Positions 9,594-42,279 are shown, numbered from the stretch's first letter. The stretch is DNA of 64,000 nt from Spirochaetia bacterium (GCA_963677925.2 CAXXYH010000003.1:1792001-1856000), one strand, 5' to 3'. Notes: generated from the letters alone by a model not told the origin. Translations and numbers: made by a program.

Positions 9594-9596
9594 TAC

Positions 9597-11186: not shown

Positions 11187-11258
11187 ATTAAATCTCCTGT
11201 TCTTTAATGATCTATTGTAAATAGAATAGAAGCAGATTGCAAAAGAAACGGAAGTTTA

Positions 11259-11333
11259 TTGTGAAGATTTCGTGAAGAGGATTTTTTTCATTCTCCCCGA
11301 TCTCTTTTAAACAGCTTCACAATTTCTTCAAAA
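11259..11333. promoter_or_regulatory. Two oppositely oriented direct-repeat boxes (candidate OmpR-family sites) in a divergent promoter
   Basis: TTGTGAAGATTTCGTGAAGA (11259-11278) and CTTCACAATTTCTTCAAAA (11315-11333), each with 11-bp repeat period. Confidence 0.6.
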
Positions 11334-25909: not shown

Positions 25910-26848
25910 ATGAACAATAATTCAAAAACCGGACAAGGAGTAAGGAATATCATTTTTATCATAATTGCAGCTGCAGTCCTTATCATCCTCCTATCAACAG
26001 CACCCTTTCTTATATCAGGAAAAGTTGATGCCGTACCGGTTTCTTTTTATTTTGAACAGAATACTCACCCGGACCACACCGGATATCATACCAGCGATTT
26101 CTCTGTAATGTCGCTTAATATCGGGCACGGCAGGGGCGGCGGCTTCCATCAGATGACACAGGGCCGGAAGAAAATCACATCCAATGCCGATTACATCTCT
26201 GAAATCGTGATGAAGGAAGACATAACGATTACCGCGCTGCAGGAAGTTGACGGACCGGGGCTCTGGAACGGCGGACTTGATTTGATTGAACACCTTGCTG
26301 AATCATCCGGTTATGCACACGGGATATGGACCAAGAATGTTGATATCCCGGCACTCAGCTACGGGACTGCGGTATTAAGCAGCCTCCCCTACTCAACCGC
26401 TGAATCTTTTACCTTCAGGGCAAGACCGGTAGTTCTTCCAAAAGGCTTCACGCTCGGAGTATTCAGAGTATCTGAAACTGACGACCGTCATGTCTGTGTG
26501 GTATCTGTCCATCTGGACCCGATATTCAGTTTGATGAGAAGAAAACAGGCTGATGCTATCATTGAAAAGCTTGCCGCATACGACTACCCTGTGATAATTG
26601 CCGGAGACTTCAACTGCGGATGGAGAACGGGCTCGGCTGTCCAGTATCTTGCCGAAAAACTCAACCTGCAGGCATGGGAGCCTGAATCAAAAAAATACCC
26701 GACAAGACTGCCGGGCAAAAGACGTCTGGACTGGATTTTAATCTCAGACGAAATGGAATTTGTTCATTATGAAACTCTGCCCTACATACTGTCGGATCAC
26801 TCCGCAGTAAGGGCAGATATACGTTTCAAAGAACAGCAGGTTTATTAA
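25910..26848 (+). CDS. Endonuclease/exonuclease/phosphatase-family protein, membrane-anchored
   Basis: MSLNI, ALQEVD, SVHL, IAGDFN, RLDWI, LSDH. Confidence 0.9.
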
Positions 26849-27006
26849 TCTTCAGGTGAGAAATCATCCTTGGATGCGCCGCACATTGGACAAACCCAGT
26901 CTTCGGGGATATCTGCAAATGCAGTTCCAGCTGCTACACCGTTATCAGGATCACCTTCTGACGGATCATAAACATATCCGCATACATCACATACATACTT
27001 CTGCAT
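26845..27006 (-). CDS. Rubredoxin (53 aa; below the ORF-track cutoff)
   Basis: Manual translation [53 protein letters not shown]; AAGGAG SD. Confidence 0.97.
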
Positions 27007-27021
27007 CTTATTACTCCTTAA

Positions 27022-27405
27022 TTAGTTGCTTTTCCACAAACCGTGAAGGTTACAGTATTCACGGGCTGTTACATTATCATGGGCTCCACACATGAACTCA
27101 GCTACAGGCTGATCTCCGGGGGCCAGGAATTTCTTACCGCTCTTGCCGTCAAAATTAATCTCGATCCATTCAATAAAATGTTCATCAAGCATAGGATGGA
27201 GAGTACTTCCAACAGTCACCTTGTAACCGCCGTCGATAGCCTCGATCACAGGTACATGCTTTTCGGTTGATGAATCAGCTGCTTTTTCTTCCAGCTTATC
27301 CATTGGTTGTCCGCAGCAGACGAGATCGCCGCCGCCAGCATGCAGAACTTCTACGACATTACCGCAAAGACTGCATTTGTAAACTTCTTTTTTTTCTTTT
27401 GTCAT
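27022..27405 (-). CDS. dfx: Desulfoferrodoxin (2Fe superoxide reductase)
   Basis: [35 protein letters not shown]. Confidence 0.96.
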
Positions 27406-27416
27406 TTGGCTCTCCT

Positions 27417-27992
27417 TTACCAGTTTTCACCAAGTATTTCAAAATATGCCTTCGGATGTGCACAGGCCGGACAAACTTCAGGGGCTGATTCCGCCTCATG
27501 AAGATAGCCGCAGTTTAGACATCTCCAGACTGTTTTTTCGCTTCTTTTAAAAACTTCTCCGCTTTCAATGTTAGCGAGAAGATCCTTGTATCGTTTTTCA
27601 TGCTGCTTTTCCGAAACACTTACAGCCTCATACATATCTGCAACAGCCTTAAAGCCTTCTTCCCTTGCAATTTTTGCAAAGCCCGGATAAAGGTCGGTCC
27701 ATTCTTCATTCTCGCCTGCTGCAGCTTCAGCAAGATTTTCCGCAGTTGTACCGATTTTTCCAGCAGGATATGAAGCAGTAATCTCTACCATTCCGCCCTC
27801 AAGGAATTTGAACATTCTTTTTGCATGTTCTTTTTCCTGATCTGCGGTTTCTTCAAATATCTTTGATATCTGAACATAACCTTCTTTTTTTGCTACGCTG
27901 GCGAAATAGGTATACCTGTTTCTTGCCTGAGACTCACCCGCGAAGGATTTAAGAAGACATTTTTCCGTCTCTGTACCTTTTAAATTACTCAT
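27417..27992 (-). CDS. rbr: Rubrerythrin
   Basis: [42 protein letters not shown]. Confidence 0.97.
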
Positions 27993-28008: not shown

Positions 28009-28863
28009 TTAAATTAATTGATCTTCCAACTCTTTGTAGGTTAAATCAGGGTGGATTCCGATTCTCGACATACTAAAATCATATCTTACAGGATCCCCTT
28101 TGTCAAACTTTTTGAGGCTGTCAGTTATTTCAACGGCAGTTGTAAAATCTGCACTCTTTCTATTAGTGAGTCCCAGAAAGGTACTCACCTTCATTACATG
28201 GGTATCCACCGGGATAATCAGCTGGGATTTGTCCAGTTTCCACCCGCCCGGATCGATATTATCTGATCTTACCATCCATCGCAGAAAAAGGCTCTGTCTC
28301 TTGCAGGCGCTTCCACAGTCCGGGTTGGCGATAACGCTACGTCCCTCAGGGCGTTCACCGGCTGATTCACTGCAGCCGGATACTAACTTACCAGGCCTGC
28401 TGTAAATACTTTTATATATATTCCCGAGCCCCGCAGGAACAAGACCTGTATCAGGAGTCTTCTCAACGCCTGCGGAGAAGCAGTTCTCCAGAGAACCATA
28501 CTCAATATATATCCTGCGAAGACCGGCAAGGAATTTTCCAATATCAGATTCAGAATAAAACCGATACTTCATCCCCGCAGCCAGAGCCGTCAGCTCTGCC
28601 TCTGAACGGTTCACTAGCCCATCATAAGGACTGCCGAGACGTAAAAAAAGTTTTTCAAGAAAATCGAGGATCGCGTTTACACGGCCAAGTGCAAATGCAG
28701 CTGAAATAAAGGCCGAAGCTTCTATATCCTTAAAATCTGTATACCTAAGGGGAAAAATCAAGGGGTCCGGATTTATATACTCCGCTTTATGATACTTCCT
28801 GTAAAATCGTTCCAGTATTTCTGCTGTCTGCTCTTCGGTGAGATTTCTTACCGGTTTTGTCAT
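28009..28863 (-). CDS. TIGR02757 / DUF2400-family protein
   Basis: [37 protein letters not shown]. Confidence 0.88.
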
Positions 28864-28947
28864 ATAGATAAATTAAGGACTTTATTCAGGAAATTCAAGT
28901 ACAAATAATAATTTTATATAATTATATAGAATATTAACCATATACTA

Positions 28948-28992
28948 ATAAAAACGGTTTAAGACAGTTTTTATAGCTGCTGCCTTAAACCG
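28948..28992 (-). terminator. Probable terminator closing the nqr-like operon
   Basis: CGGTTTAAG...CTTAAACCG stem with U-rich tail on the minus strand. Confidence 0.6.
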
Positions 28993-29030
28993 CATTATAA
29001 TGCTGATATGATAGTGTGCTTATAAAAGCT

Positions 29031-29492
29031 TCAAATCTTTATGTCCTTTAAAAACAGCAGAACTTCCGGGTCAAGCCTGAAGAAACTGCCCTTCCCCTGA
29101 AAAAAACCGTGTTCCCTAATCAGGTGAATACCCAGATCAGTATAGAACATTTCTTCTTCGGTTTTTTTATTTGCCACGGTTATAACCGTTTTACGGAACA
29201 GCCCCGGATGATCAAAAGGACATGGAAGCTTGCCGCGTACAGAATCGGCTTTTACCATATAGTCACCCGAGATGCTGATAAAATCACCAAAGCCCTCAAG
29301 TGCTTTTTCCCGCAGGGCTTCCAGACTGTCGGCAATTTCATCACGAGTCAGCCCGATTTTTTCGAGAGTCATTGCATCATGATCGATTATCTCTTCGATG
29401 CTGCGGGAATCTTCACCCATAAAACCGTTAAGAGAAATAACTCCGGGTTTCATGTTTTCTATAATTTTATGCATTGCAGGATTTTCTTTCAT
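29031..29492 (-). CDS. Hypothetical soluble protein, last gene of the nqr-like operon
   Basis: GGAGGT SD; 15 bp after the nqrF-like stop; motifs LPCPFDH and IHLIREHGFFQG. Confidence 0.8.
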   Translation of the reverse strand: MKENPAMHKIIENMKPGVISLNGFMGEDSRSIEEIIDHDAMTLEKIGLTRDEIADSLEALREKALEGFGDFISISGDYMVKADSVRGKLPCPFDHPGLFRKTVITVANKKTEEEMFYTDLGIHLIREHGFFQGKGSFFRLDPEVLLFLKDIKI

Positions 29493-29507
29493 TTCTACCT
29501 CCGATCA

Positions 29508-30617
29508 TTAGGCGAATTTGTCATAATAAATCAGTTCTTCCGGAACACCCTTGGATGTCAGGACTTTTACACAGGCATCAATCATTCCGGGACTTCCGCA
29601 GAGATATGCTTCTACATTATCCCCGGAAGCAAGTGAATCAGCCACTGCATCGGTAACAAAACCGGTAGCCCCGTCCCAGTTATCCTCTTCAGATGGTTCG
29701 GATAATACCGGAATATATTTATAGTTTGGAAGCTTCTCACTGATTGCAGCCATTTCATCAGGAAGGACTAAATCTTTGCGGGTACGCGCTCCATAAAAAT
29801 ACTTTACATTCCGCTGGTTTCCGTTTTCTGCCATATCCAGCAGGATTGATTTAATCGGGGCATTTCCCGAACCTCCGGCGATACAGATGATATCCCGTTC
29901 GGTATCACGAAGAAAGAAATCACCGTATGGACCGTTCACAGTAACCTTATCACCCTCTTTTAGGAACTGGTGAACGTATGTAGTGCAAATTCCATTTGGA
30001 ACAAGACGAATCTCAAGCTCTACACTATCCTTCACAGATGGAGATGAAGAAATTGAGTAGGCCCGAAATACTGATTCATCGCTGAGTTTATATTCGGGAG
30101 TCATTATCTGGACAAACTGACCGGCCTTGAAGTTGATATCCTCGGGCTTGAGAAGCTTGAAAGTGATTTCCTTGATATCATGCGTAAGATCCTTGATGCT
30201 GGCAACCTCGGTCTGATACTGACGCACACTGAACAGCTCTTCAGGAATTTTGATCTCCATGTCATTCTTAACTTTAACCTGACAAGAAAGCCTTATCTTC
30301 TCAGCCTGCTCCTCCTTGCTTATCCAGGGAAGCTCGGTAGGCAGATACTGACCCGCGCCGTCAAGAACCCTGACCTTGCAGAGCCCGCATGAGCCGCGGC
30401 CGCCGCAGGCTGACGGAATAAATATCTCCTTCTCCATGAGCGTAGAAAGCAGGGTTCGTCCGCCCTTGACGGTGATATCCTTTTTGCCGTTGATATTGAT
30501 GTTAACCTCACCATAATTGGCAATGAAAGCATCTGCAACAACAAGAATTACCGCTAAAATTACTGTCAGGGCTGTAATGGCCCCGATGCTTATTAAAAGT
30601 GCTGATACAGAAAACAT
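29508..30617 (-). CDS. nqrF: NqrF-like 2Fe-2S / FAD / NAD(P)H reductase subunit with N-terminal TM anchor
   Basis: PSACGGRGSCGLC..RLSCQ, RAYSISS, GICT, GPYGDF, AGGSGNAP, YLCGSPGM. Confidence 0.8.
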   Translation of the reverse strand: MFSVSALLISIGAITALTVILAVILVVADAFIANYGEVNININGKKDITVKGGRTLLSTLMEKEIFIPSACGGRGSCGLCKVRVLDGAGQYLPTELPWISKEEQAEKIRLSCQVKVKNDMEIKIPEELFSVRQYQTEVASIKDLTHDIKEITFKLLKPEDINFKAGQFVQIMTPEYKLSDESVFRAYSISSSPSVKDSVELEIRLVPNGICTTYVHQFLKEGDKVTVNGPYGDFFLRDTERDIICIAGGSGNAPIKSILLDMAENGNQRNVKYFYGARTRKDLVLPDEMAAISEKLPNYKYIPVLSEPSEEDNWDGATGFVTDAVADSLASGDNVEAYLCGSPGMIDACVKVLTSKGVPEELIYYDKFA

Positions 30618-30627
30618 CGAAACCTCC

Positions 30628-31215
30628 CTAACTTATATTTATCATTCCGGAAAAACCCATAAAGGCAAGGGCCATCATTCCGGCTATGATCAGCGTGATT
30701 CCCGGACCTTCAAGACCTTTAGGAACCGGAGCTGATGCTATCTTTTTCCTGATTCCGGCCATCGCAAGAATGGCAAGAAACCAGCCTACACCGCTTCCCA
30801 GTCCAAAGAAAAATGAAGAAATCAGATCATAATCACGGATTACCATAAAAAGGCTGACACCAAGGATAGCACAGTTTACAGTAATGAGCGGCAGAAAGAT
30901 TCCAAGTGCGGCATACAGACCTTCACTGACTCTTTCAATTATCATTTCAACCAGCTGAACAAAAGCGGCTATAACAACGATAAATACAATAAACCGAAGA
31001 TATTCCAGTCCAAGAGGTATCAGCAGGTAGTGATAGACTATCCAGTTTAAAAGTGTGGTCACAGCCATTACAAAGATGACCGCAGCGCCCAGACCTGTTG
31101 ATGTCTTAATTTCCTTTGAAACAGACAGAAAGGAACACATTCCAAGATAATTAGCAAGCAGAATGTTTCCGGTAAAAATTGAGCCGAAGAAAATGGCTAC
31201 TGGAAGCATGTTCAT
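30628..31215 (-). CDS. nqrE: NqrE/RnfA-family membrane subunit
   Basis: YLGMCSFL, LGIFLPLITVNCAILG. Confidence 0.8.
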   Translation of the reverse strand: MNMLPVAIFFGSIFTGNILLANYLGMCSFLSVSKEIKTSTGLGAAVIFVMAVTTLLNWIVYHYLLIPLGLEYLRFIVFIVVIAAFVQLVEMIIERVSEGLYAALGIFLPLITVNCAILGVSLFMVIRDYDLISSFFFGLGSGVGWFLAILAMAGIRKKIASAPVPKGLEGPGITLIIAGMMALAFMGFSGMINIS

Positions 31216-31805
31216 TCTGACCTCCCTTTAACTATCCAGATAAAGATTGCCAGCATGAAGAAAGCACCGGGCGGCATAATCATGATTGCCCAGTTCGTCC
31301 ACCAGCTTCCGAAAACACTGATTCCCAGGATTGTTCCCGAGCCCAGCAGTTCCCTGAAAAAAGCAATTATTATCAGTACATATGAATAGCCGATTCCCGA
31401 TGCAAGACCGTCGATAAGACTCAGGCCCGGGGGATTGCTGGCAGCGAAGGCCTCCATACGGCCCATTACAATACAGTTGGTGATGATAAGTCCGACATAG
31501 GGTCCCAGCTGCTTCGAAATCTCGGGCAGATAGGCCTTAAGCACTATATCTACAATAATTACATATGTTGCAATGATGAGTGTTTCAACCATCATTCTGA
31601 TTCTGCCCGGTATAACCTTTCGAAGGGCTGAAAATGTGAATGATGAGAGTGCTGTTGTAAACAGAACTCCAAGTGTCATTACAATTGTATTTTCAAGTTT
31701 GTTTGTTACCGCAAGGGTTGAGCATATTCCCAGAATCTGTACAAAAACAGGGTTATCCTTTCCAAGCGGCGATATGAAGGTCTTAGCGATTTTTCCTGAT
31801 GCCAT
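31212..31805 (-). CDS. nqrD: NqrD/RnfE-family membrane subunit
   Basis: DNPVFVQILGICSTLAVT, YVGLIITNCIVMGR, PPGAF. Confidence 0.8.
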   Translation of the reverse strand: MASGKIAKTFISPLGKDNPVFVQILGICSTLAVTNKLENTIVMTLGVLFTTALSSFTFSALRKVIPGRIRMMVETLIIATYVIIVDIVLKAYLPEISKQLGPYVGLIITNCIVMGRMEAFAASNPPGLSLIDGLASGIGYSYVLIIIAFFRELLGSGTILGISVFGSWWTNWAIMIMPPGAFFMLAIFIWIVKGRSE

Positions 31806-32404
31806 TACATTACCTCCTTTTCAATCTCTACGGCCTTTTCAACAGCCCTGTTAAAGATATCAAGAACATAGCCGCTGGTACGGGAAGCACCGGTAATGGC
31901 ATCTATCTCGGTATCAGTTGTCGGGGAACCTTCTGGAACCATAGTCAAAGGTCCGGTCTTACCGCGAAGCTGTTCCTTGAACCAGGTTTCAGTTATTCTG
32001 GCTCCCAGTCCGGGAGTTTCATTCTGATCAGTAAACTCTACACCGGCAAAAGTTTTGAAATCAGGTTCAAAGGCTGTTACGGCCTCTATAGTACCCCAGA
32101 GCCCGGGCCCTGAGATTATAAAAGCATAGGCATCAGGATTGCCGTCAGAGCCCTTTATTATAAAAATACCGTTCTGCTCGGAGACCCTTTGTGAATACAG
32201 CTCATTTACAGCCGCATTAGACTCAGGAACTTCAACACCGCCAGCGTAGAGAACCGCTTTTTTCTGAAAAAGGCCGTTGTTTGCAGTAACGGTATCAAGT
32301 GTTGCAAGGTATATGCCCGATATGATTGCAATACAGATGATTGTAATAACAGCCATCACAACAACAGGTTTAATTCTTTCTGCATAAAATCCGTCTTTTT
32401 TCAT
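31805..32404 (-). CDS. nqrC: NqrC/RnfG-family FMN-binding subunit
   Basis: N-terminal TM; GPGLWG, ETPGLGARI, DAITGASRTS flavinylation motif. Confidence 0.8.
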   Translation of the reverse strand: MKKDGFYAERIKPVVVMAVITIICIAIISGIYLATLDTVTANNGLFQKKAVLYAGGVEVPESNAAVNELYSQRVSEQNGIFIIKGSDGNPDAYAFIISGPGLWGTIEAVTAFEPDFKTFAGVEFTDQNETPGLGARITETWFKEQLRGKTGPLTMVPEGSPTTDTEIDAITGASRTSGYVLDIFNRAVEKAVEIEKEVM

Positions 32405-33366
32405 GCCTTTGCACCTGCCTTTTTCTTTTTCTTGTACTCCTTCATATAATGATCAAGAAGCGGCGCAAACATGTTTGCAAGCAGAATTGCGAAGGTTGTT
32501 GCCTCAACCCATATCGAGAAAAGCCTTATTAAAGCGATTAAAACACCGATCAGCGCTCCGTAAATCCAGCGTCCGGTATCGGTTGTCTGCGACGACGAAA
32601 TGGGGTCTGTAGCCATAAAGACCATTCCATAGAGAAGGCTTCCGCTCAGCAGCCCGTAAACAGGATTTACAGCACCTTCCAGGCCGCCAAAGTAGAAAGC
32701 AGCCTGAATTACAAGGTAACCGACAATACCTGAAAGTATTATTCTGAAGTTTGCCGCTTTTTTGTAGATCAAAAAGATACCGGCAATAATAATCAGCAGG
32801 GCGCTGGTCTCGCCCAGAGAACCGGAAACATTGCCGAGAAGCAGATTCATTAGCGGAGTATCTGTCCCGGCTGCAAAATTTGCTATCGGAGTGGCCTTGG
32901 AAACTGCATCAGCACCGTTAAGCCACTGCGCAAAACCTCCGGGAAAGCCCGAAGAAACCGGAACAAAGCCTGAGGTCATCGGTACACCAAAGCTGATATA
33001 TATAAAAGCACGGCCCGAAATAGCAGGATTGAAGACATTCCGTCCGAATCCGCCGAATACCATCTTTCCGAAAACAACGCCGAAGACAATACCGGCAACT
33101 GCTATCCAGTAAGGAACAGCTGGTGGTAGAGAAAGGGCGAAAAGAAAGTTGGTTACAAAAACAGCTGACGAAACCTGCTTTTTATAGATCTTTGCGAAGA
33201 TATACTCACTTAAAAATCCTGCGATATTTACAATTAACAGAACAGAGAGGGCTCTCCATCCGAAAAAGTAAATTGACAGCACCGCAACAGGAATAAGAGA
33301 GTACACTACCTGGAACATTACCTTCTGCCGCATGATTAACGGCTTTTTTTTATCTGTTGTTGCCAT
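32401..33366 (-). CDS. nqrB: NqrB/RnfD-family membrane subunit (start revised to MATTDKK)
   Basis: KMVFGGFGRNVFNPA, DAVSKATP, GSLGETS, FMATDP, AILLANMFAPLLD; TTGACA-17-GAAGAT-6-ATG supports the start at 33366. Confidence 0.75.
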   Translation of the reverse strand: MATTDKKKPLIMRQKVMFQVVYSLIPVAVLSIYFFGWRALSVLLIVNIAGFLSEYIFAKIYKKQVSSAVFVTNFLFALSLPPAVPYWIAVAGIVFGVVFGKMVFGGFGRNVFNPAISGRAFIYISFGVPMTSGFVPVSSGFPGGFAQWLNGADAVSKATPIANFAAGTDTPLMNLLLGNVSGSLGETSALLIIIAGIFLIYKKAANFRIILSGIVGYLVIQAAFYFGGLEGAVNPVYGLLSGSLLYGMVFMATDPISSSQTTDTGRWIYGALIGVLIALIRLFSIWVEATTFAILLANMFAPLLDHYMKEYKKKKKAGAKA

Positions 33367-33472
33367 ACTTCTATCTTCTTTGATTTTGCAAACATTGTCA
33401 ATTTTAATATTCAGATAAAACGCCACTATATCAGTAGTTGACCCGTGCCATCAAATAATAGAGAATGTATAT

Positions 33473-33823
33473 ATGATAACTCTTGAACAAGTTTCCGGAA
33501 ATCTTGAATGTAAAACATACAACCAGAGCAGTAACTTTAAAAATGCCGGAATTGAAAACATAGTCGCAAGCGATCTGATGAGCGAAGTCCTTGTCGCAGA
33601 AGAAGAAGGGCTCCTGCTTATTACTGCACTCAATACAGAACAGACCCTGAGAACTGCACATATAGTCGATGCCGTTGGGATTCTGCTTGTGAACGGAAAG
33701 ACCCCCCAGCCCGGAATGATAAAACTGGCTGACGAATTTGATATCACCCTGATCTCAACCAGGACCTCTATGTTCAGAGCCTGTGCCGCGCTCGGCAGAA
33801 TGATGGATGAGGGACAGCATTGA
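33473..33823 (+). CDS. DRTGG-domain protein
   Basis: ASDLMSEVL..LLITAL..QTLRTA..LVNGKTP..SMFRAC. Confidence 0.85.
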   Translation: MITLEQVSGNLECKTYNQSSNFKNAGIENIVASDLMSEVLVAEEEGLLLITALNTEQTLRTAHIVDAVGILLVNGKTPQPGMIKLADEFDITLISTRTSMFRACAALGRMMDEGQH

Positions 33824-34749
33824 AAAAACTGATTCCTGTTTATCAGAATCAGCCGCTTGCGGTACTTGAGTTAATCCAGGGACATAAAATAAAGGATATA
33901 ATGTCCAGGAACCCGACCTCTGTACCGGGAACAACTACAATGAAAGAGGTCAAGCAGCTGATGAAAGAACGCTCAATTAGCGGTGTTCCTGTACTGAAAA
34001 ACCGAAGACTTGTCGGAATAATCAGCGTCGAAGATCTTCTCAATGCTCTTGAAGCAGGACGGATGAATGATCCGGTTGAAAAGCACATGTCAAGAAATCT
34101 TGTAGTCCTGGAAGAAATGATGCCTGTCAGGTTTGCAATTGATTACTTTGAAAACTACAATTACGGACGTTTCCCGGTTCTTAACGAAAAGAAAGAGCTT
34201 ACAGGCATCATCACCAGCCGCGATATTATCATGCACATGATCAAGGTAATGAATGAGGAGATTCAGCGCCTTGAAGAACTGGCTAAAGACGGCGCACAGA
34301 CAGAAATCGGCAATATTGTCCGGCGGTTTGCAATCCTTCAGAATGATTTCAAGAATGCGGGAAAGGCATCAATCGAGATTAAAAATATTCTCAAAGAACA
34401 CAACATAAACCGGAAAATTATCCGGGCAACCGCAACAGCTGTTTACGAACTTGAAATAAATCAGGTAGTACATTCGATGGGTGGAGAAATTCTGTGCAGG
34501 ATAACCGACAAGTATGTTGAAATACTTGCACGTGACCGAGGACCGGGGATCCCTGATGTTGAGAAGGCAATGACTCCGGGATTTTCAACGGCAACCGACT
34601 GGATCCGGACCCTTGGATTCGGTGCCGGAATGGGTCTGCCCAATATAAAGAGGGTATCCGATGAATTCACTCTGGAGACTTCTGAATCAGGAACAGAAAT
34701 AAGGGTAGTTGTATATATCCCGGATGACAATGCTGAAAAAACGTTATAG
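33820..34749 (+). CDS. CBS-pair domain fused to RsbT/RsbW-type Ser/Thr kinase (HATPase)
   Basis: Two CBS repeats (IMSRNP..ISGVPV..LVGII; HMSRN..GRFPV..LTGII); YELEINQVVH, DRGPGIPD, GFSTA, GAGMGLPNIKR. Confidence 0.88.
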   Translation: MKKLIPVYQNQPLAVLELIQGHKIKDIMSRNPTSVPGTTTMKEVKQLMKERSISGVPVLKNRRLVGIISVEDLLNALEAGRMNDPVEKHMSRNLVVLEEMMPVRFAIDYFENYNYGRFPVLNEKKELTGIITSRDIIMHMIKVMNEEIQRLEELAKDGAQTEIGNIVRRFAILQNDFKNAGKASIEIKNILKEHNINRKIIRATATAVYELEINQVVHSMGGEILCRITDKYVEILARDRGPGIPDVEKAMTPGFSTATDWIRTLGFGAGMGLPNIKRVSDEFTLETSESGTEIRVVVYIPDDNAEKTL

Positions 34750-34758
34750 AATAAGAAC

Positions 34759-35097
34759 ATGAAAATCAGCGAATTACAGGAAAAACTCGGATATACCATT
34801 CTTACGGCTATGCCTGATAAAAAGATTCTGAATGCATACACATCAGATCTTCTCAGTGATGTGATGGGAAATGCAGCAGATGATTCTGTCCTGATAACCA
34901 TTCAGGCTCATAAAAATACAATAGCAGTAGCCTCACTTGCAGGAATAAATGCAATAATACTCTGCAACGGACGGAAACCTCCCGAGGATATGCTCCCCGC
35001 AGCAGAACAGGAAGGCATTGCAGTATTAAGCACTTCAGTGAACCAGTTCGAAGCTTCTGTGGATGTGGCAAAAGCCCTTAACCTCTGCGGCTGCTGA
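34759..35097 (+). CDS. DRTGG-domain protein
   Basis: YTSDLLSDVMG..LITIQAHKNTIAVASL. Confidence 0.85.
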   Translation: MKISELQEKLGYTILTAMPDKKILNAYTSDLLSDVMGNAADDSVLITIQAHKNTIAVASLAGINAIILCNGRKPPEDMLPAAEQEGIAVLSTSVNQFEASVDVAKALNLCGC

Positions 35098-35100
35098 ACA

Positions 35101-35823
35101 TTGCCGGAATTTAAAGCAGATCTGCACATCCACTCATGCCTCAGTCCATGCGGAAGCCTGGATATGTCGCCGTCGCTGATTGCCGGCGAACTGAAGAAAC
35201 AGAACTTTAAAATTGCAGCCCTCACCGACCACAATTCGGCACTTAACTGCGCGGCTTTTGAAAAATGCTGCCGCCTGCTTGATATAGTACCTATAAGCGG
35301 AATTGAGGTTACGACTGTAGAAGAGTCCCATGTTGTATGCCTTTTCAACAGTGCAGGAACAGCGGAAGAACTGGGAAGGCTTGTCTATTCAAAACTTCCC
35401 GAAGTTCAGAATGTGGCGGAAAAGTTCGGCGATCAGGTAGCCGTTGACGAGGACGAAAACATTATAGCAGAGGTAGATAAATACCTGCTGAGTGCATCAG
35501 AGCTCAGCCTTGATGATCTTTACGACGCCGTCACTGCCCTGGGAGGACTCTTCATTCCTGCTCATATAAACAGACCTGTTTTCAGCATCCCTTCTCAGCT
35601 AGGGTTCCTTCCCGACATGAATTATTCCGCTGTTGAAGTAACAAAACTTCCCTGTGAAACCGATCTAAAAAATTATACAGTGATAGTCAATTCCGATGCA
35701 CACTACCCCCATAACATAGGAAACAGATACAGCATATATGAAAGCGGCGACATTTCCTTTGAAGGTTTGAAAATTTCTATGAAAAAAGGACTGGTATCCA
35801 CTATAATTCAGTCAGGAGTATAA
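35101..35823 (+). CDS. PHP-family phosphoesterase
   Basis: DLHIHSCLSPC, LTDHN, GIEVTT, PAHINR, NSDAH. Confidence 0.9.
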   Translation: MPEFKADLHIHSCLSPCGSLDMSPSLIAGELKKQNFKIAALTDHNSALNCAAFEKCCRLLDIVPISGIEVTTVEESHVVCLFNSAGTAEELGRLVYSKLPEVQNVAEKFGDQVAVDEDENIIAEVDKYLLSASELSLDDLYDAVTALGGLFIPAHINRPVFSIPSQLGFLPDMNYSAVEVTKLPCETDLKNYTVIVNSDAHYPHNIGNRYSIYESGDISFEGLKISMKKGLVSTIIQSGV

Positions 35824-35830
35824 TTCTGAC

Positions 35831-37684
35831 ATGGATTTATTAAAAGATCTGAAAAACCTCCTTGAAGATCTCACAGAACCTGCATGTTTTCTGTCTGCGG
35901 AGTTCAGATATATATGGGCTAATACCAGGTATATAACCCATTCCGGTCATAAAACTGAGGATCTGGATGGTAAAAATCTTTGTGAAGTAATTCCGGCCGA
36001 TTACGCACCGATTCTAATTGAAAAACTTAAAGCCCTGACCACGGAAAATCCTTATTTCGATAATGAATATCCTGAAATTATGATGAACGGTCAGATCATC
36101 AACAGGAGCTGGAGAAACAGGGCAATATTTGACAATAACGGAAAGGTCCTCGCCTACTGCTGTATTGTACAAACTTCAAGCCCGGGAGAAAAGGCTGTAG
36201 TTAACCTGCGTGACAATGATCTAATCCTGAATTCAGTGCTGAAATCTGCAGTTTTCGGATTGATGATCGCTGAAAAAGATAAAATACTTTTTATTAATGA
36301 TGTCTTTGAGCAGATGCTAGAACTATCAGAAAATAAACCTGACCGTGAACGATACAGTTTTGCTGAACTGCTTAACTCATTTTTCAACACTGAATCGCCT
36401 GTAATAAACTCACTCACTGAATACTCGGGAAGTATAAAATTCGAAAAAGAAATAGCAGCCAAAGGAAAAAAAAGATGGGTGTCCGTGATCACCAAGATCC
36501 AGGAATATAATAACAGGATTTTCACAATGATGGTCAGTGAGGATATAACTGTAAAAAAACTCTATGAACTGGAACTTAAAAGAAACAGGGAGAACCTGGC
36601 CCATATAAACAGAATAGCAAAACTGGGATACTGGGAGAAGGATTTCAGCAGGGACCGCTGGTTCTGGTCTGAAGACACCTACCGTATTTTCGATGTCAAA
36701 TATCCTGACGAGGTTACTGAAGATATCATTAAAAATAAATTCCACCCCGATGACTACAAAAAAAGACTCCGGAATATTGAAACATGCATAAACTCGACCA
36801 GCGACTGCAGCTATGAATATGAATACAGAATATTTACTGGAAACGGTAAAATCAGGTGGATTACAGGACAATCATTCTTCAAGACCAATTCGTCAGAAAA
36901 GAAATCCAAATTCTTCGGCTGGGTACAGGATCAAACAGATCGAAAGCAAAATGAGGAAGCCTTAAAGGAAGCTCTGGTAAAAGCTGAAGAATCCGAAAGA
37001 CTAAAAACTGCCTTCCTGGCGAATATCAGTCATGAAATAAGAACGCCTCTGAATGCTATTCTTGGTTTCTCTGACCTTATTTCAAAGACAAGTGACCCCG
37101 ATTTACAGAAAACCTATTCGGGAATAATCAGGAGCAGCGGAAACCTCCTGCTGACCCTGGTCAACGATATGATTGATTTTGCAAAAATTGAAGCAGGGTC
37201 TTTTGAACTGTTTATTTCCGATGTTTACCTTGAAGATCTTTTTCATGAACTCAGAGACATGTTCATGAACCAGAGCGGCGGCGCTGTCAGGCTGCAGATA
37301 GCCGAAGCTCCTGATACAAAGGGACTCCTTCTTACTGACAGAGACAGGCTGACGCAAATCCTTGTAAACCTGATAAATAACGCATTCAAGTACACTGAAA
37401 AAGGCATTATCAGCATCGAAGCTGAGATTAATCATTCTGCAGCAACAGTGGTTATCAGTGTGAGCGACACAGGAATTGGTATAAACCCCTCAGATCTCGA
37501 GCATATTTTTGATCGCTTCTATCAGATTAACAGCTTCAGCCAGGGTACGGGTCTGGGACTCCCCATTTCAAGAGCAATAGCGGCTCAGCTTGGAGGTTCG
37601 CTTACAGTAGAGTCTCAACCTGCGCAGGGATCGAAATTCATGCTCTGCCTGCCCTTTGTCACACCCTCGGAATTAATGTCTTAG
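35831..37684 (+). CDS. Cytoplasmic multi-PAS sensor histidine kinase
   Basis: No TM; PAS-like segments (WANTRY; LGYWE..WSEDTYRIF..HPDD..EYRI); FLANISHEIRTPLN, NLINNAFKYT, DTGIGI, GTGLGL. Confidence 0.9.
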   Translation: MDLLKDLKNLLEDLTEPACFLSAEFRYIWANTRYITHSGHKTEDLDGKNLCEVIPADYAPILIEKLKALTTENPYFDNEYPEIMMNGQIINRSWRNRAIFDNNGKVLAYCCIVQTSSPGEKAVVNLRDNDLILNSVLKSAVFGLMIAEKDKILFINDVFEQMLELSENKPDRERYSFAELLNSFFNTESPVINSLTEYSGSIKFEKEIAAKGKKRWVSVITKIQEYNNRIFTMMVSEDITVKKLYELELKRNRENLAHINRIAKLGYWEKDFSRDRWFWSEDTYRIFDVKYPDEVTEDIIKNKFHPDDYKKRLRNIETCINSTSDCSYEYEYRIFTGNGKIRWITGQSFFKTNSSEKKSKFFGWVQDQTDRKQNEEALKEALVKAEESERLKTAFLANISHEIRTPLNAILGFSDLISKTSDPDLQKTYSGIIRSSGNLLLTLVNDMIDFAKIEAGSFELFISDVYLEDLFHELRDMFMNQSGGAVRLQIAEAPDTKGLLLTDRDRLTQILVNLINNAFKYTEKGIISIEAEINHSAATVVISVSDTGIGINPSDLEHIFDRFYQINSFSQGTGLGLPISRAIAAQLGGSLTVESQPAQGSKFMLCLPFVTPSELMS

Positions 37685-37687
37685 AAT

Positions 37688-37718
37688 AAAAAAAGGCTGC
37701 ATCCCGAAGGATACAGCC
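37688..37718 (-). terminator. Terminator of the hydrogenase operon
   Basis: A7-GGCTGCATCC-cgaa-GGATACAGCC. Confidence 0.8.
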
Positions 37719-37748
37719 GTAATTGTACTACTCAAAACGTCAAACTGT

Positions 37749-39500
37749 TCAGTTCTTGTAAAGAGGTCTAGGTGTGTAATGAGTATGAAGAAGGTGGTGA
37801 GACTTCTCGGAAAGAGGAGCACCAAGATATTCTTCATAGATCTTTGCAATATCAGGGTTCTGGTGTGAACATCTGATAGTACTCTTTTCATCATCATTAT
37901 AAAGACCGGCAATTCGCTTCTCACGGATATCGTCTTCAGTACCGTAGGGCTGTCCGCCTCCGGCGATACATCCGCCGCGGCATGCCATTACTTCAATGAA
38001 GTGGTAGGGAAGTTCATCACCCTTTTCCTTGGCAGCTCTAATCTCGTCAAGGACGGCCTTAACATTTGCCATGCCATGAGCTACCGCAACCTTAACCTTG
38101 GTGCCCTTGATATCAACAACACCGGCTTTAACTCCGTCCATACCTCGGACAGCAGTAATATTTACATCAGCAAGCTCTTCCTTGGTTACAAGGTAGTAGG
38201 CTGAGCGCACTGCGGCTTCCATAACACCGCCGGTTACACCGAAGATTGTTCCTGCACCTGTGTATGCGCCGATAGGACTGTCAGCCTCTTCCTCAGGAAG
38301 GTTGGCAAAGTCGATACCTGCAGTTTTTATGCATCTTGCAAGCTCTCTTGTTGTAAGAACGAGATCCACATCATCATAGCCTGATGACTGCATGTTCTCA
38401 TCTCTGACTCTTTCAAACTTCTTGGCTGTACATGGCATTATTGAAACAGAGTAAATCTTTGAAGGATCAATCCCCTTCTTCTCTGCATAATATGTCTTGG
38501 TTATTGCTCCCTGCATCATCTGCGGAGATTTTGCAGTTGAGAAATGCGGAATCATATCCGGATAGTATTTTTCCATGTAATCTGTCCATGCGGGACAGCA
38601 GGAAGTAAGCTGCGGCAGCTCACCCTTTCCGTTTACAAGCCTTTCAACAAGCTCGGACCCCTCTTCCATGATGGTGAGGTCGGCGGAAAAGTTAGTATCA
38701 AATACAGCATCAACACCAAGCATTCTAAGTGCAGCATAAATTTTTCCAGTTACAATTTCACCGGGTTTCATGCCGAATGCTTCACCGATTGCAACCCTGA
38801 CTGCAGGTGCCATCTGAACAGCTACATGCTTCTCGGGATCCTTGATAGCAGCTTTCATCAGGTCGGTATCATCTTTTTCATAGATTGCGCCGACAGGACA
38901 GTGTGCTGAACACTGACCGCACTTGATACAGGGGCTTTCATTAAGAACTACACCTGCTGAAGGCATAAGTCTTGTATTCTCACCTCTGTTAAGGAATTCA
39001 AGTGCCCATACATCCTGCAGCTGCTGACAGACCTGTGCACAGCGGCCGCACTGGATACATTTTGAAGGATCAAGAATGATTGAAGGTGTTGATTCATCCT
39101 TCGGGAGTCTTTTAACATTGCGGTCAAAAGGGATTTCCCTGATGGCGTATTCAGCAGCAAGCCTCTGAAGCTCACAGGTCTGGTTACGTCCGCAGGTAAG
39201 ACATTCCTGGGGATGATCCGCAAGAGTCATTTCAATAACGGTTTTTCTTATTGAATGTATTTCAGGATCGTTGGTGATATAATTCTGTCCCTCACTTACA
39301 AGTGTTGAACAGGCTCTGACCATTCTGGGGTTGCCCTCAATCTTGACAACACAGATTCCGCATGCAGCCCAGGGGGTCAGATCAGAATGATAACAGAGTG
39401 TCGGAATCTTAACACCGGCCATCTTTGCGGCTTTGAGTATTGATGTTCCAACCGGAACACTCTGTTCTCTGCCGTTAACCTTTATATTTACAGTACTCAC
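37749..39500 (-). CDS. hydA: [FeFe]-hydrogenase catalytic subunit (group A, bifurcating type)
   Basis: H-cluster motifs TSCCPAW, MPCTAKKFE, EVMACRGGCIAGGGQP; N-terminal 2Fe-2S, His-ligated 4Fe-4S and 2x4Fe-4S. Confidence 0.96.
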   Translation of the reverse strand: MSTVNIKVNGREQSVPVGTSILKAAKMAGVKIPTLCYHSDLTPWAACGICVVKIEGNPRMVRACSTLVSEGQNYITNDPEIHSIRKTVIEMTLADHPQECLTCGRNQTCELQRLAAEYAIREIPFDRNVKRLPKDESTPSIILDPSKCIQCGRCAQVCQQLQDVWALEFLNRGENTRLMPSAGVVLNESPCIKCGQCSAHCPVGAIYEKDDTDLMKAAIKDPEKHVAVQMAPAVRVAIGEAFGMKPGEIVTGKIYAALRMLGVDAVFDTNFSADLTIMEEGSELVERLVNGKGELPQLTSCCPAWTDYMEKYYPDMIPHFSTAKSPQMMQGAITKTYYAEKKGIDPSKIYSVSIMPCTAKKFERVRDENMQSSGYDDVDLVLTTRELARCIKTAGIDFANLPEEEADSPIGAYTGAGTIFGVTGGVMEAAVRSAYYLVTKEELADVNITAVRGMDGVKAGVVDIKGTKVKVAVAHGMANVKAVLDEIRAAKEKGDELPYHFIEVMACRGGCIAGGGQPYGTEDDIREKRIAGLYNDDEKSTIRCSHQNPDIAKIYEEYLGAPLSEKSHHLLHTHYTPRPLYKN

Positions 39501-39515
39501 TGTTATTCTCCTTTA

Positions 39516-41309: not shown

Positions 41310-41320
41310 CCTCTCCTCCG

Positions 41321-41713
41321 TTATTCCCTGACAATATCGGCTGCGGGCTTGTCAAAAATATGGTTGTCGACAAGCTTGCCCGCTAAAATATGTTCTTTAA
41401 CTATCCGGCGGGCTGTATCCCCGTCAACCTGTCCATAGATTGTATCCGGCATTCCCGGAGCCTTGATTTCAACTGTAGGTTCTACATAGCAGAGGCCCAT
41501 ACAGCCGGTCTGTTTTACAGTTACATTCTTGACTCCGCTTTTCTCTATTTCATCAAGGAAGGCATCGAGAGCTTCTTTGGCGCCGGCGGCGATTCCGCAT
41601 GTACCCATCCCGATGATGATATGAATATCTTTTCCTTCTGTATCTCTCTTATCAATTTCAGCTTTTTTGCTGTTCCTGAGATTTCTAAGTTCCTCAAGGG
41701 TCATTTTTGCCAT
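41321..41713 (-). CDS. Thioredoxin-like 2Fe-2S ferredoxin subunit (HydD/HndB-like)
   Basis: GMGTCGIAAGA..TGCMGLCYVEP. Confidence 0.88.
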   Translation of the reverse strand: MAKMTLEELRNLRNSKKAEIDKRDTEGKDIHIIIGMGTCGIAAGAKEALDAFLDEIEKSGVKNVTVKQTGCMGLCYVEPTVEIKAPGMPDTIYGQVDGDTARRIVKEHILAGKLVDNHIFDKPAADIVRE

Positions 41714-41715
41714 AA

Positions 41716-42276
41716 TTAATCTCCCTGTATCAAATCTTCTTCCTGTGACCGCAGAAACTGTCTCGCAAGAATAAGCGAGTCTGCATCATTAAGGTCACCA
41801 AGAACCTCTATTATTTCTGATCGTTTTACGGAATACCCGCGTACTTCACCTTCTATCTCCAGGCTGCGTTCAACCGGCATATCATACAGTCCATCAAACA
41901 TGAATGCCTGCAGAATCATCGCGCTGAGGTCTCCGAGAGGAGGGGTATCGATATTATCAAGCGGAAATGTAAAAACAAGGTCGGTCCCTCTGTTCTTTTC
42001 CGACTTTATCGAAAAATCTCCTCCGGTCTGCTCAACCGTCTGGATCAAAAAAGGAAGTCCTAACCCGACTTTGCGTGATTTGTGTTTTATACCGTCCGTA
42101 TAGAATGGATCGACAGCCTTTTTTAATTCGTCTTCATCCATTCCTCTGCCGTTGTCTTTAATTGAAACCGCGAAGTTCCGGGCGGTCTGGTTTATATCAA
42201 GATAAACCTCGGTAGCCCCTGCTTCTACAGAATTCTGAAGACAATCAAGGATAAAATCACAGACGGCTGCATGCAC
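41716..42276 (-). CDS. Stand-alone HATPase (GHKL) protein within the hydrogenase operon
   Basis: LDCLQNSVEAGA, DNGRGM, DPFYT, VGLGLP; no HisKA domain. Confidence 0.88.
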   Translation of the reverse strand: MHAAVCDFILDCLQNSVEAGATEVYLDINQTARNFAVSIKDNGRGMDEDELKKAVDPFYTDGIKHKSRKVGLGLPFLIQTVEQTGGDFSIKSEKNRGTDLVFTFPLDNIDTPPLGDLSAMILQAFMFDGLYDMPVERSLEIEGEVRGYSVKRSEIIEVLGDLNDADSLILARQFLRSQEEDLIQGD

Positions 42277-42279
42277 TAA

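Follow-up and report, generated by a model that had tools for sequence, protein, structure and literature searches.

A six-gene unit of this Spirochaetia bacterium, nqrB-C-D-E-F-orfX, would encode a self-contained, ion-translocating NADH oxidoreductase of the NQR lineage that lacks NqrA and passes its electrons to a non-quinone acceptor on the cytoplasmic side, a reading to which we assign a probability of roughly 0.6. The unit lies in the 64-kb stretch of DNA that was analyzed (the window). Its coordinates and family matches bear out the first-pass annotation, which had described a self-contained unit in the order B-C-D-E-F-orfX with an NADH input module, F; the latter is recognized both by the nqrF model and by its domains.

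33366-29031, minus strand: six-gene unit nqrB-C-D-E-F-orfX (ORF calls and family models)
33366..32401, minus strand: B, 321 aa from the ATG, or 341 aa from an upstream GTG at 33426
32404..31805, minus strand: C, 199 aa, FMN_bind match
31805..31212, minus strand: D, 197 aa, Rnf-Nqr match, NqrD-type
31215..30628, minus strand: E, 195 aa, Rnf-Nqr match, NqrE/RnfA-type
30617..29508, minus strand: F, 369 aa, Fer2, FAD_binding_6 and NAD_binding_1 matches
29492..29031, minus strand: orfX, 153 aa, no Pfam or NCBIfam match
33454..33425, minus strand: top-scoring promoter-like site upstream of B, TTGATG-18-TATAGT, its -10 preceded by TG (promoter scan)
33401..33373, minus strand: weak promoter candidate of the first-pass annotation, TTGACA-17-GAAGAT (sequence read)
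28997-28950, minus strand: intrinsic terminator hairpin followed by a U-run (folding and shuffles)

B and C overlap by 4 nt, C and D by 1 nt, and D and E by 4 nt, while gaps of 10 nt and 15 nt separate E from F and F from orfX. The terminator proposed for the end of the unit was confirmed: the folding energy of its hairpin (-19.4 kcal/mol, z = -4.3) was equaled in none of 200 shuffles, and UUUUUAUU lies directly 3' of it. The proposed promoter fared less well. Its hexamers are present at a spacing of 17 nt (TTGACA at 33401-33396, GAAGAT at 33378-33373), but GAAGAT agrees with a -10 element in just 3 of its 6 bases and stops 6 nt short of the ATG at 33366, and the site overlaps the likely ribosome-binding stretch of B. 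Since the promoter scan gave 10 such sites for the region and 9.7 +/- 2.9 for its shuffles, which is the chance level, neither promoter candidate is statistically supported.

B matches PF03116 in the family search and is a short membrane protein of the NqrB/RnfD family; the NCBI pipeline labels its relatives “RnfD.” As had been noted before, it is RnfD-sized and lacks the long N-terminal region of NqrB. The nqrB models align to it only from model positions 85-122 onward, and at the start of the alignment Vibrio cholerae NqrB residue 132 pairs with B residue 42. Ahead of the conserved core there are about 41 residues in B versus 105 in canonical NqrB, and the missing stretch comes to about 65-90 residues (~90 relative to V. 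cholerae NqrB). B scores below the cut-offs of both NqrB equivalog models (234.5, cut-off 414; 217.5, cut-off 349.9) and passes the rnfD subfamily model, which is a broad one (239.8, cut-off 207).

Phylogeny places B with NqrB. In the B tree, RnfD occupies one side of a branch with a support of 100, and B lies on the opposite side together with NqrB; all 8 RnfD representatives of the tree that were tested score far higher as rnfD than as nqrB. Canonical NqrB is likewise set apart by a branch with a support of 100, and the nesting within canonical Na+-NQR that the first-pass annotation had considered is not seen in this tree. B belongs instead to a starred set of 18 short-B rows. The short-B proteins form a large clade, which is sister to NqrB proper if the root of this unrooted tree is placed within RnfD; the clade as a whole is weakly supported (85 in one tree and 42-88 in another).

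The other subunits were compared with family models and with the structures of V. cholerae Na+-NQR (7XK3, 8A1U) and Rnf (7ZC6, 8AHX, 9ERK). D reaches 244.8 bits with the nqrD equivalog (cut-off 235) versus 175 with rnfE, and against the solved structures 198.7 bits with NqrD versus 138 bits with the Rnf counterpart. F reaches 327.1 bits with the nqrF model TIGR01941 (cut-off 295) and 233.6 bits in the comparison with V. cholerae NqrF, while E scores equally as RnfA and as NqrE. Because B falls on the NqrB side and D and F exceed the NqrD and NqrF cut-offs, the predicted complex is a deeply branching member of the NQR lineage rather than a mixture of Rnf and Nqr parts. The earlier description of a “hybrid” complex was abandoned on these grounds, and an Rnf/Nqr chimera is ruled out by them.

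Every cofactor site of the NQR electron path is present and conserved. F combines an N-terminal membrane helix with a 2Fe-2S ferredoxin domain and an FAD/NADH domain, and its four cluster cysteines (Cys71, 77, 80, and 112) recur in every one of the 81 F proteins aligned; insertions of ~30, 14, and 7 residues found in canonical NqrF are missing. The ligands of the intramembrane 2Fe-2S cluster are equally constant, Cys28 and Cys111 of D in 62/62 proteins and Cys27 and Cys115 of E in 63/63. C, which is ~40 residues shorter than canonical NqrC, consists of one membrane anchor and an FMN_bind domain with the flavinylation motif DAITGAS (Ser174), and all eight NqrA-less C proteins carry DAITGA[ST]. 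The flavinylation residue of B, Thr159, lies in DAVSKAT, and its column holds Thr in every protein compared (25/25 short-B, 12/12 intermediate, 11/11 canonical NqrB, and 16/16 RnfD). Covalent FMN on B and C is accordingly a predicted modification; the 57 window ORFs scanned include no apbE. The riboflavin ligands of V. cholerae NqrB, given as T162, G198, N200, N203, A205, F342, and D346 in PMC10643135, align to T72, G108, N110, N113, A115, F250, and D254 of B. Four of these, G108, N110, N113, and A115, do not vary among the 40 short-B proteins compared. Acidic residues of B, D, and E align with V. cholerae NqrB D397, NqrD D133, and NqrE E95, which we take to have a role in Na+ transport. With all of these cofactor sites kept, the U-shaped electron chain looks intact.

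In the proposed mechanism, NADH would be oxidized at the FAD domain of F, whose 2Fe-2S cluster would deliver single electrons to the intramembrane 2Fe-2S cluster of D/E. The electrons would continue to the covalent FMN of C at the outer face and return to the cytoplasmic side by way of B, first its covalent FMN and then its riboflavin; as in Na+-NQR, this would drive the export of Na+ or H+. From the riboflavin of B the electrons would leave to a soluble acceptor with a potential much higher than that of NADH. Both the activity and the ion pumping are predictions by homology.

As the first-pass annotation had stated, the unit contains no NqrA, RnfB, or RnfC. A profile built from 48 NqrA sequences had no match at E<=10 in the six-frame translation of the 64-kb window or in loci L001 to L008, whereas it matched 51 of 52 canonical loci holding B. 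RnfC and RnfB domains were found neither in the unit nor in the 57 window ORFs scanned nor in 45 flanking ORFs of L002 to L008, and the sole Complex1_51K domain in the window belongs to a NuoF-like hydrogenase subunit (39516-41309). The window also holds a bifurcating-type FeFe hydrogenase, a rubrerythrin, a superoxide reductase, and a rubredoxin. The order B-C-D-E-F-orfX is kept in all seven spirochaete loci, one of which (L001) is from the same species as the window, and NqrA is present in none of them.

NqrBCDEF clusters without NqrA have been noted in Pseudothermotoga thermarum, Pseudothermotoga lettingae, Clostridium ultunense, Alkaliphilus metalliredigens, and “Ca. Izimaplasma” ZiA1 (PMC4148951, PMC5924567, PMC6256511), and Salinispira pacifica is probably another case (PMC4511686). 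The excerpts of these four reports state that the acceptor is unknown. The published clusters resemble the spirochaete unit in gene order, in the absence of nqrA, and in their anaerobic hosts, where they occur alongside a full rnf operon; they comprise five genes, whereas the spirochaete form adds orfX in 7/7 loci. Judged by gene order and description, the two probably belong to one clade, and the Tissierellia locus L007, with an F identity of 54%, forms a bridge between the spirochaete group and the C. ultunense type. The first-pass remark that partial nqr-like operons had been noted before without biochemistry is correct (PMC4148951, PMC5924567, PMC4511686), and our literature search found no biochemical study of an NqrA-less NqrBCDEF.

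The co-occurrence of NqrBCDEF with a complete rnf operon in these organisms (PMC5924567, PMC4148951, PMC4511686) could mean that the unit is not self-contained and borrows RnfC, RnfB, or NqrA from elsewhere, for example from such an operon, and our search for NqrA and RnfC covered a 64-kb window of the genome. We nevertheless regard borrowing as very improbable. With RnfC added, the electrons of NADH would simply end on NAD+, and no work would be done; B falls outside the RnfD clade; the same six genes, without a seventh, recur in all seven loci; and nqrA is reported, in the excerpts of PMC4148951 and PMC5924567, to be missing altogether from the published genomes.

For a self-contained complex, the question is where electrons leave. 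NqrA of Na+-NQR carries no cofactor and is assigned no function in the excerpts of PMC12174285 and PMC10643135, which place the bound quinone at the NqrB rim, with 11.6 A between it and riboflavin; both quinone and HQNO recruit the N-terminal NqrB helices (PMC10643135). Since quinone is bound at NqrB and NqrA has no cofactor, the loss of NqrA alone leaves the exit in place. The claim that neither known output module is present thus holds insofar as NqrA and RnfC are absent, but it is overstated. The real loss, as the alignment indicates, is that of the amphiphilic N-terminal helices of NqrB, which complete the quinone pocket.

A minimal NADH:menaquinone oxidoreductase, reducing quinone at the rim of B near riboflavin with neither NqrA nor the N-terminal helices, would suit the conserved riboflavin site and surrounding helices of B, its place with NqrB, across the split from RnfD, and the binding of quinone by NqrB itself. 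We consider it unlikely. B is without the helices that build the high-affinity quinone pocket, and no quinone biosynthesis gene occurs among the 57 window ORFs scanned, although 64 kb samples little of the genome. In PMC3372971, Sphaerochaeta carrying rnf and nqr is said to be devoid of respiratory functions, and for S. pacifica, likened to our case by description, the excerpt of PMC4511686 reports a five-gene NQR-like cluster while lipoquinone and cytochrome genes are absent and none were detected chemically. The absence of NqrA, a B subunit without the pocket-completing helices, and a quinone-free, fermentative related spirochaete together make a soluble high-potential acceptor most likely.

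Rubredoxin, feeding superoxide reductase and rubrerythrin, is the soluble acceptor that we would tentatively prefer, at odds well below even. Rubredoxins, rubrerythrin, and a superoxide reductase are all present in S. pacifica, an organism that reduces O2 (PMC4511686), and a candidate electron sink lies downstream of the unit in the window (26845..27992):

27992-27417, minus strand: rubrerythrin (family match)
27405-27022, minus strand: desulfoferrodoxin-type superoxide reductase (family match)
27006-26845, minus strand: rubredoxin (family match)

This trio is found downstream on the same strand in 3 of the 7 loci (window/L001, L002, and L005), representing both subclades of the B tree, and in none of the 73 other loci; of these three, the window/L001 and L002 are closely related to one another. 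In L003, L004, L006, and L008 the neighbors are unrelated, and in the window the terminator and a separate DUF2400 gene lie between orfX and the trio. Were rubredoxin the acceptor, the net reaction would be that of clostridial NADH:rubredoxin oxidoreductase, a soluble flavoenzyme of unrelated origin that neither has a membrane part nor conserves energy, and hence a functional analogue only. A pathway from NADH via rubredoxin to rubrerythrin is cited in PMC4511686, whose excerpt states that an NADH:rubredoxin oxidoreductase gene was not found in S. pacifica.

Alternatively, electrons might exit on the outer side, from the FMN of C to periplasmic flavinylated reductases, which would make the complex an NADH-driven source of electrons for extracytosolic reductions. 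The window encodes a candidate lipoprotein (1715-3919; LAGC lipobox) that carries a flavocytochrome-c-like FAD domain besides two flavinylation motifs, and a similar role, sending electrons one way to the outside, has been proposed for a two-subunit NQR/RNF-like system made of an NqrB-like domain fused to an NAD-binding domain and an NqrC-like protein (PMC8238504, PMC11334425). That system, too, is a partial NQR/RNF that takes its electrons from NAD(P)H and contains neither NqrA nor RnfC, but it has no D, E, or separate F and, as described there, has lost the flavinylation Thr of its B domain, whereas the unit keeps D, E, F, and Thr159 and its B is unfused. If electrons left at C, the Thr and the riboflavin ligands of B would be unnecessary, yet B retains every one of them. 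The reductase, moreover, is 25 kb distant, and a NapH/NosR-like membrane iron-sulfur protein (9597-11186) is much nearer to it and its likely supplier. We therefore judge an outer-side exit to be quite improbable and retain the soluble cytoplasmic acceptor.

The predicted complex shares with Na+-NQR the order B-C-D-E-F, an NqrF with anchor, 2Fe-2S, and FAD/NADH parts, an NqrD-type D, the four D/E cysteines, the flavinylation sites of B and C, the riboflavin ligands, and the acidic membrane residues. It differs in the absence of NqrA and of the N-terminal region of B, in shorter C and F, in the extra orfX, and in its setting in fermentative anaerobes. Likeness to Rnf lies in the RnfD and RnfG lengths of B and C, in the passing of the rnfD subfamily model by B, in the equal RnfA and NqrE scores of E, and in the “RnfD” label given to relatives of B; RnfC and RnfB are absent, B lies outside the RnfD clade, D is clearly NqrD-like, and NADH would enter via NqrF on the D/E side, which in Rnf is the entry point of ferredoxin.

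The stripped-down NQR form has been noticed before in the genomes of other anaerobes; the spirochaete loci add the conserved orfX. OrfX is predicted to be a soluble, acidic protein (pI 5.25) with a confidently modeled structure. It has one Cys and no recognizable cofactor motif, and it matched no Pfam or NCBIfam family. The first-pass annotation had counted it as a sixth subunit. Linkage to the nqr unit in 7/7 spirochaete loci agrees with this, but orfX was not found after F in the single Tissierellia locus, L007, and the published Thermotoga and C. ultunense clusters have five genes; OrfX is not a universal sixth subunit. We propose that it is a lineage-specific cytoplasmic accessory protein, acting either as a docking or output adaptor on B or as a maturation factor.

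All six genes of the operon run in tandem along the minus strand, with overlaps of 4, 1, and 4 nt at the B/C, C/D, and D/E junctions and gaps of 10 and 15 nt between E and F and between F and orfX.

Genes of the operon (coordinates, strand, product; families from Pfam/NCBIfam)
33366-32401, minus strand: B, 321 aa from ATG, or 341 aa if the GTG at 33426 is used; NQR2_RnfD_RnfE protein
32404-31805, minus strand: C, 199 aa; FMN_bind protein
31805-31212, minus strand: D, 197 aa; Rnf-Nqr membrane protein
31215-30628, minus strand: E, 195 aa; Rnf-Nqr membrane protein
30617-29508, minus strand: F, 369 aa; 2Fe-2S/FAD/NAD protein
29492-29031, minus strand: orfX, 153 aa; no Pfam or NCBIfam match

A database protein 98% identical to B is 321 aa long, and F scores 327.1 bits on the nqrF equivalog model (cut-off 295). 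The terminator that the first-pass annotation had placed after orfX is supported by a hairpin 35 to 80 nt past the stop codon (−19.4 kcal/mol, z = −4.3), which was equaled by none of 200 shuffles and is followed by UUUUUAUU. Of the promoter proposed there, the hexamers are present in the sequence, but the −10 element is a poor one lying right next to the start codon. Upstream of B, at 33454-33425, another promoter-like site looks better, and the number of such sites in the upstream region equals the shuffled expectation. Rfam gave no RNA element or riboswitch in the window at gathering score, and none in 28800-33800 at E ≤ 1.

The reported absence of NqrA, RnfB, and RnfC was borne out by profile and domain scans of the window. 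A profile built from 48 NqrA genes located upstream of nqrB in related loci (all three NqrA Pfam domains being present in 6 of 6 members checked) found nothing at E ≤ 10 in the six-frame translation of the whole 64 kb, and no RnfC or RnfB architecture was found among the 57 window ORFs scanned. Related genomes were then represented by one genome per species in a scan with F, which left 80 loci. The order B-C-D-E-F-orfX recurs in all seven spirochaete loci (F identity 61 to 99%; one, L001, is from the window's own species), and the NqrA profile found no NqrA in any of the seven. The flanks vary among the NqrA-less loci (45 flanking ORFs scanned), so the six genes form a conserved unit, and the unit lacking NqrA is real. 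That the complex depends on further subunits encoded elsewhere is, set beside these loci, a very improbable reading. Among the remaining loci (L009-L080), 52 hold B, and NqrA lies directly upstream in 51 of them, the exception being a contig whose first bases already fall within B. Identity to B ranges from 57 to 98% among its best 120 database relatives, and those with names are spirochaetal; the B protein of the isolate Sediminispirochaeta bajacaliforniensis is 60% identical to that of the window. Such relatives are named RnfD by NCBI and NqrB by JGI.

The complex had been described as an Nqr/Rnf hybrid, a description that does not hold, as B lies on the NqrB side of the RnfD branch (support 100), D is NqrD-like, and F is NqrF. 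Family scores against solved structures and NCBIfam models are split between the subunits. While D gives 198.7 bits on the NqrD side versus 138 for RnfE among solved structures, and 244.8 bits on the NqrD model (cut-off 235), E and C score equally on the Nqr and Rnf sides. The only model whose cut-off B clears is that of the broad rnfD subfamily, yet the B core matches Vibrio cholerae NqrB best.

A search with B against 1.84 billion cluster representatives gave 6401 matches at E ≤ 0.001, of which the best 150 were taken. The first B tree contains 119 of these representatives (290 to 450 aa), 7 NqrA-less B proteins (the window and six loci, with the same-species L001 omitted), and 16 of the 52 canonical NqrB proteins; a second, from a quick search, applied a site-heterogeneous model (PMSF) to 64 rows. 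The RnfD group is set apart by a branch of support 100 and length 0.55, and all eight members tested score far higher on rnfD than on nqrB. Canonical NqrB proteins form a clade that is likewise supported at 100 (3/3 tested are above the nqrB cut-off). The window B falls, in a starred set of 18 rows, inside a large group of "short B" proteins; it is of RnfD-like length and lacks the N-terminal NqrB region completing the quinone pocket. Ten of ten group members tested score about equally on the rnfD and nqrB models. Of the 119 representatives in the first tree, themselves drawn from the best 150 of the 6401 matches, 44 belong to this clade. Provided that the tree is rooted on RnfD, an assumed rooting that rests on the view, found in excerpts of the published work, that NQR arose from RNF, the short-B group would be the sister group of NqrB broadly defined.

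The stretch ahead of the conserved core measures ~40 residues in short B, 50 in RnfD, 82 in intermediate NqrB-like proteins, and 105 in canonical NqrB. Relative to canonical NqrF, 9/9 NqrA-less F proteins carry three deletions, of ~30, ~14, and ~7 residues, and C is ~40 residues shorter than its canonical counterpart. Thus, the B trees, the N-terminal lengths, and the shortened F and C point to a deep branch of the NQR lineage, and neither to a chimera nor to a form nested within canonical NQR. Nesting of the subunits in canonical NQR, raised by the first-pass annotation as grounds for abandoning its view, was not seen in the B trees, where short B lies outside the canonical NqrB clade. The intermediate NqrB-like proteins (P0069, P0070, P0087, P0094, P0100, P0103, P0126, and other database matches of 350 to 400 aa with ~82 residues before the core) score 311 to 366 bits on the nqrB model, under its cut-off, and branch beside canonical NqrB.

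The alignments indicate that all NQR cofactor sites are intact, as is the input module, with the chain ending at the riboflavin in B. The four cysteines of the F ferredoxin domain are kept in 81 of 81 aligned F proteins, Cys28 and Cys111 of D in 62 of 62 sequences, and Cys27 and Cys115 of E in 63 of 63. The flavinylation motif of C is DAITGAS; the corresponding position is Ser or Thr in all eight NqrA-less C proteins and Thr in 53/53 canonical ones. In B the motif is DAVSKAT, and the Thr159 column is Thr in all 64 sequences of the four groups compared. B residues T72, G108, N110, N113, A115, F250, and D254 align with the V. cholerae NqrB riboflavin ligands T162, G198, N200, N203, A205, F342, and D346 given in the excerpts of Hau et al. 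(PMC10643135), and four of the seven show no variation across 40 of 40 short-B proteins. Since these sites are all intact, the U-shaped NQR/RNF path, which ends at the riboflavin near the cytoplasmic face of B, is preserved. G140/G141 was dropped as a quinone-site marker, as its second position varies even in canonical NqrB of the surveyed loci.

OrfX had been proposed as a sixth subunit. It is present in all seven spirochaete loci but is not universal, being absent after F from the Tissierellia locus (54% identity, 4.2-kb contig), where a sigma-54 activator follows E-F. Because it is missing both there and from the published five-gene clusters, we treat it as a lineage-specific accessory. Its 54 relatives, of about 150 aa, come mostly from Spirochaetales and a few Clostridiales. 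In an alignment of 30 of these, down to 38% identity, 16 columns are invariant (G23, F24, G26, D28, R30, I35, D39, G87, P92, K101, H123, H128, F130, G133, R139, and P142) and Cys91 almost so. OrfX is acidic, has no hydrophobic segment, and is modeled by AlphaFold as a compact alpha/beta fold (pLDDT 93.6, pTM 0.88). Judging by a GKGS loop and by conserved Asp, Arg, Lys, and His residues, it may bind an anionic ligand or a metal. No solved-structure relative was found in the PDB, where the best match is a designed repeat protein (E = 0.0023 over 31 residues); Pfam gave no family common to more than one of the 30 members at E ≤ 1, and NCBIfam gave none. Longer, fused forms were not found, which is weak evidence. 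The homologue P0047 matches only unnamed Atlas clusters in Planctomycetota, Thermodesulfobacteriota, Spirochaetota, and Cloacimonadota (0.95 to 0.98), one of which carries DUF7919 on 13% of its members, a lead only. The hhalign comparison of OrfX with 18 NqrA sequences gave a probability of 1.4%, so OrfX is not an NqrA remnant.

The NqrA-less form is already noticed in print. The excerpts available describe NqrBCDEF without NqrA in Clostridium ultunense and Alkaliphilus metalliredigens in 2018 (PMC5924567) and in an Izimaplasma draft genome (PMC6256511), as well as a five-gene NQR-like cluster alongside a six-gene RNF in Salinispira pacifica (PMC4511686). In that account, Salinispira lacks both quinone genes and quinones and reduces oxygen with rubredoxins and rubrerythrin, although a gene for NADH:rubredoxin oxidoreductase was not found. 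A 2014 evolution paper and a 2025 review (PMC12174285) do not discuss NqrA-less forms in the parts accessible, where the review covers RNF and NQR only; the two-subunit "NQR/RNF-like" system, as described in excerpt, is distinct from NqrA-less NqrBCDEF. No biochemical study of the latter was found in the literature, as far as the excerpts extend, in agreement with the earlier remark that partial nqr-like operons appear in genome papers without biochemistry.

By homology, the complex is expected to oxidize NADH and to couple this to export of Na+ or H+. We favor, with a probability of roughly 0.6, an ion-pumping NADH oxidoreductase whose exit step is unlike that of NQR, because B lacks the N-terminal region that completes the quinone pocket, because NqrA, which sits on the cytoplasmic face, is absent, and because Salinispira is described, in the excerpts, as having neither quinone genes nor quinones. 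The first-pass annotation had counted NqrA as an output module, which we correct here: it is not the output module. A minimal quinone reductase, with the path to riboflavin kept and the quinone-pocket region of B missing, seems unlikely. Still less likely is that the complex supplies electrons outward to flavinylated reductases of the periplasm, such as the one encoded at 1715-3919; the retention of the path as far as the riboflavin of B argues against electron exit at C.

Forward pumping from NADH requires an acceptor well above −320 mV, a role that rubredoxin would suit. Downstream of the operon, and on its strand, are genes for rubrerythrin (27992-27417), superoxide reductase (27405-27022), and rubredoxin (27006-26845), both in the window with its same-species locus L001 and in two further spirochaete loci (L002 and L005). 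The trio is absent from four of the seven spirochaete loci and found in 0 of the other 73, and the loci bearing it are spread over the two subclades of the spirochaete B tree. In the window, the terminator and another gene sit between operon and trio; this, like the four loci without the trio, weighs against rubredoxin. Rubredoxin as the acceptor is a tentative proposal, with odds of perhaps one in four or five, and the fuller version, an ion-pumping NADH:rubredoxin oxidoreductase with rubredoxin docking on B and reduced by its riboflavin, is at the lower end of that estimate. The docking site would be the cytoplasmic face of B, which is bare here but occupied by RnfC or NqrA in the known complexes; rubredoxin, perhaps positioned by OrfX, would there receive electrons from the riboflavin. 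A fermenter free of quinones and cytochromes could in this way gain sodium- or proton-motive force from the reduction of superoxide, peroxide, and oxygen.

If rubredoxin is the acceptor, oxygen detoxification in an anaerobe would be coupled to energy gain, and the complex would be the rubredoxin reductase that is "missing" from Salinispira and similar spirochaetes. Redox-driven ion pumps of this kind form a unique class with only two known members, RNF and NQR; with a third form, itself widespread, strict fermenters would have a new energy-conserving reaction in their metabolism. The NqrA-less form has NADH input but neither quinone pocket nor RnfC. It may mark a stage in the origin of NQR from RNF, since the N terminus of B lengthens stepwise (~40, ~82, and ~105 residues) over three NqrB-side clades. 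Cultured spirochaetes carry the operon, so the acceptor question is directly testable, and the NqrA-less complex is worth a bench test.

Several neighboring genes deserve mention. The minus-strand gene at 1715-3919 encodes a lipoprotein of 734 aa, whose signal ends in LAGC. It has a flavocytochrome-c-like FAD domain and two FMN_bind domains with one flavinylation motif apiece (GVSGASAT and AVTGATFS); from this architecture, its product is predicted to be an extracytosolic flavinylated reductase. Its best NCBIfam match, vinyl phenol reductase, reaches 95.8 bits, far under the cut-off. At 7603-11186, on the minus strand, a 529-aa NapH/NosR-like membrane iron-sulfur protein with two Fer4_5 domains adjoins a response regulator and a histidine kinase and is likely a transmembrane electron conduit near the flavinylated reductase. 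Divergent from the operon, 33473-42768 holds DRTGG, CBS-HATPase, DRTGG, PHP, and PAS histidine-kinase genes, and the same regulators flank the L002 operon. They are followed, on the minus strand, by a NuoE/NuoF/HydA-type (bifurcating-type) FeFe hydrogenase cluster with an HATPase protein, beyond which lies a Rex-like repressor (43007-43669). A DUF2400/TIGR02757 gene (28009-28863, minus strand) separates orfX from the rubrerythrin gene; in L002 it is also found 3' of the operon, behind a histidine kinase gene.

Two observations concern loci outside the NqrA-less set. A 4Fe-4S dicluster domain is present in RnfC and is said to have been lost from NqrA. One nqrABCDEF locus from an uncultured bacterium is canonical except that its NqrA gene (L016:5260-6699, plus strand) encodes such a domain at the C terminus, with residues 404 to 460 matched by five Fer4-type Pfam families, so this NqrA may be the relic of an intermediate linking RnfC and NqrA. 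The F protein of this locus is the closest canonical F to that of the window (40% identity). In twelve Cytophagales/Ekhidna/Roseivirgaceae-type loci (L027, L030, L034, L036, L039, L041, L043, L046, L050, L051, L057, and L058), an NqrF-like gene of ~431 aa lies at about 10000-11290, with B, C, D, E, and NqrA absent within 10 kb on each side; judged by this context, each is a putative split operon or stand-alone NqrF paralogue.
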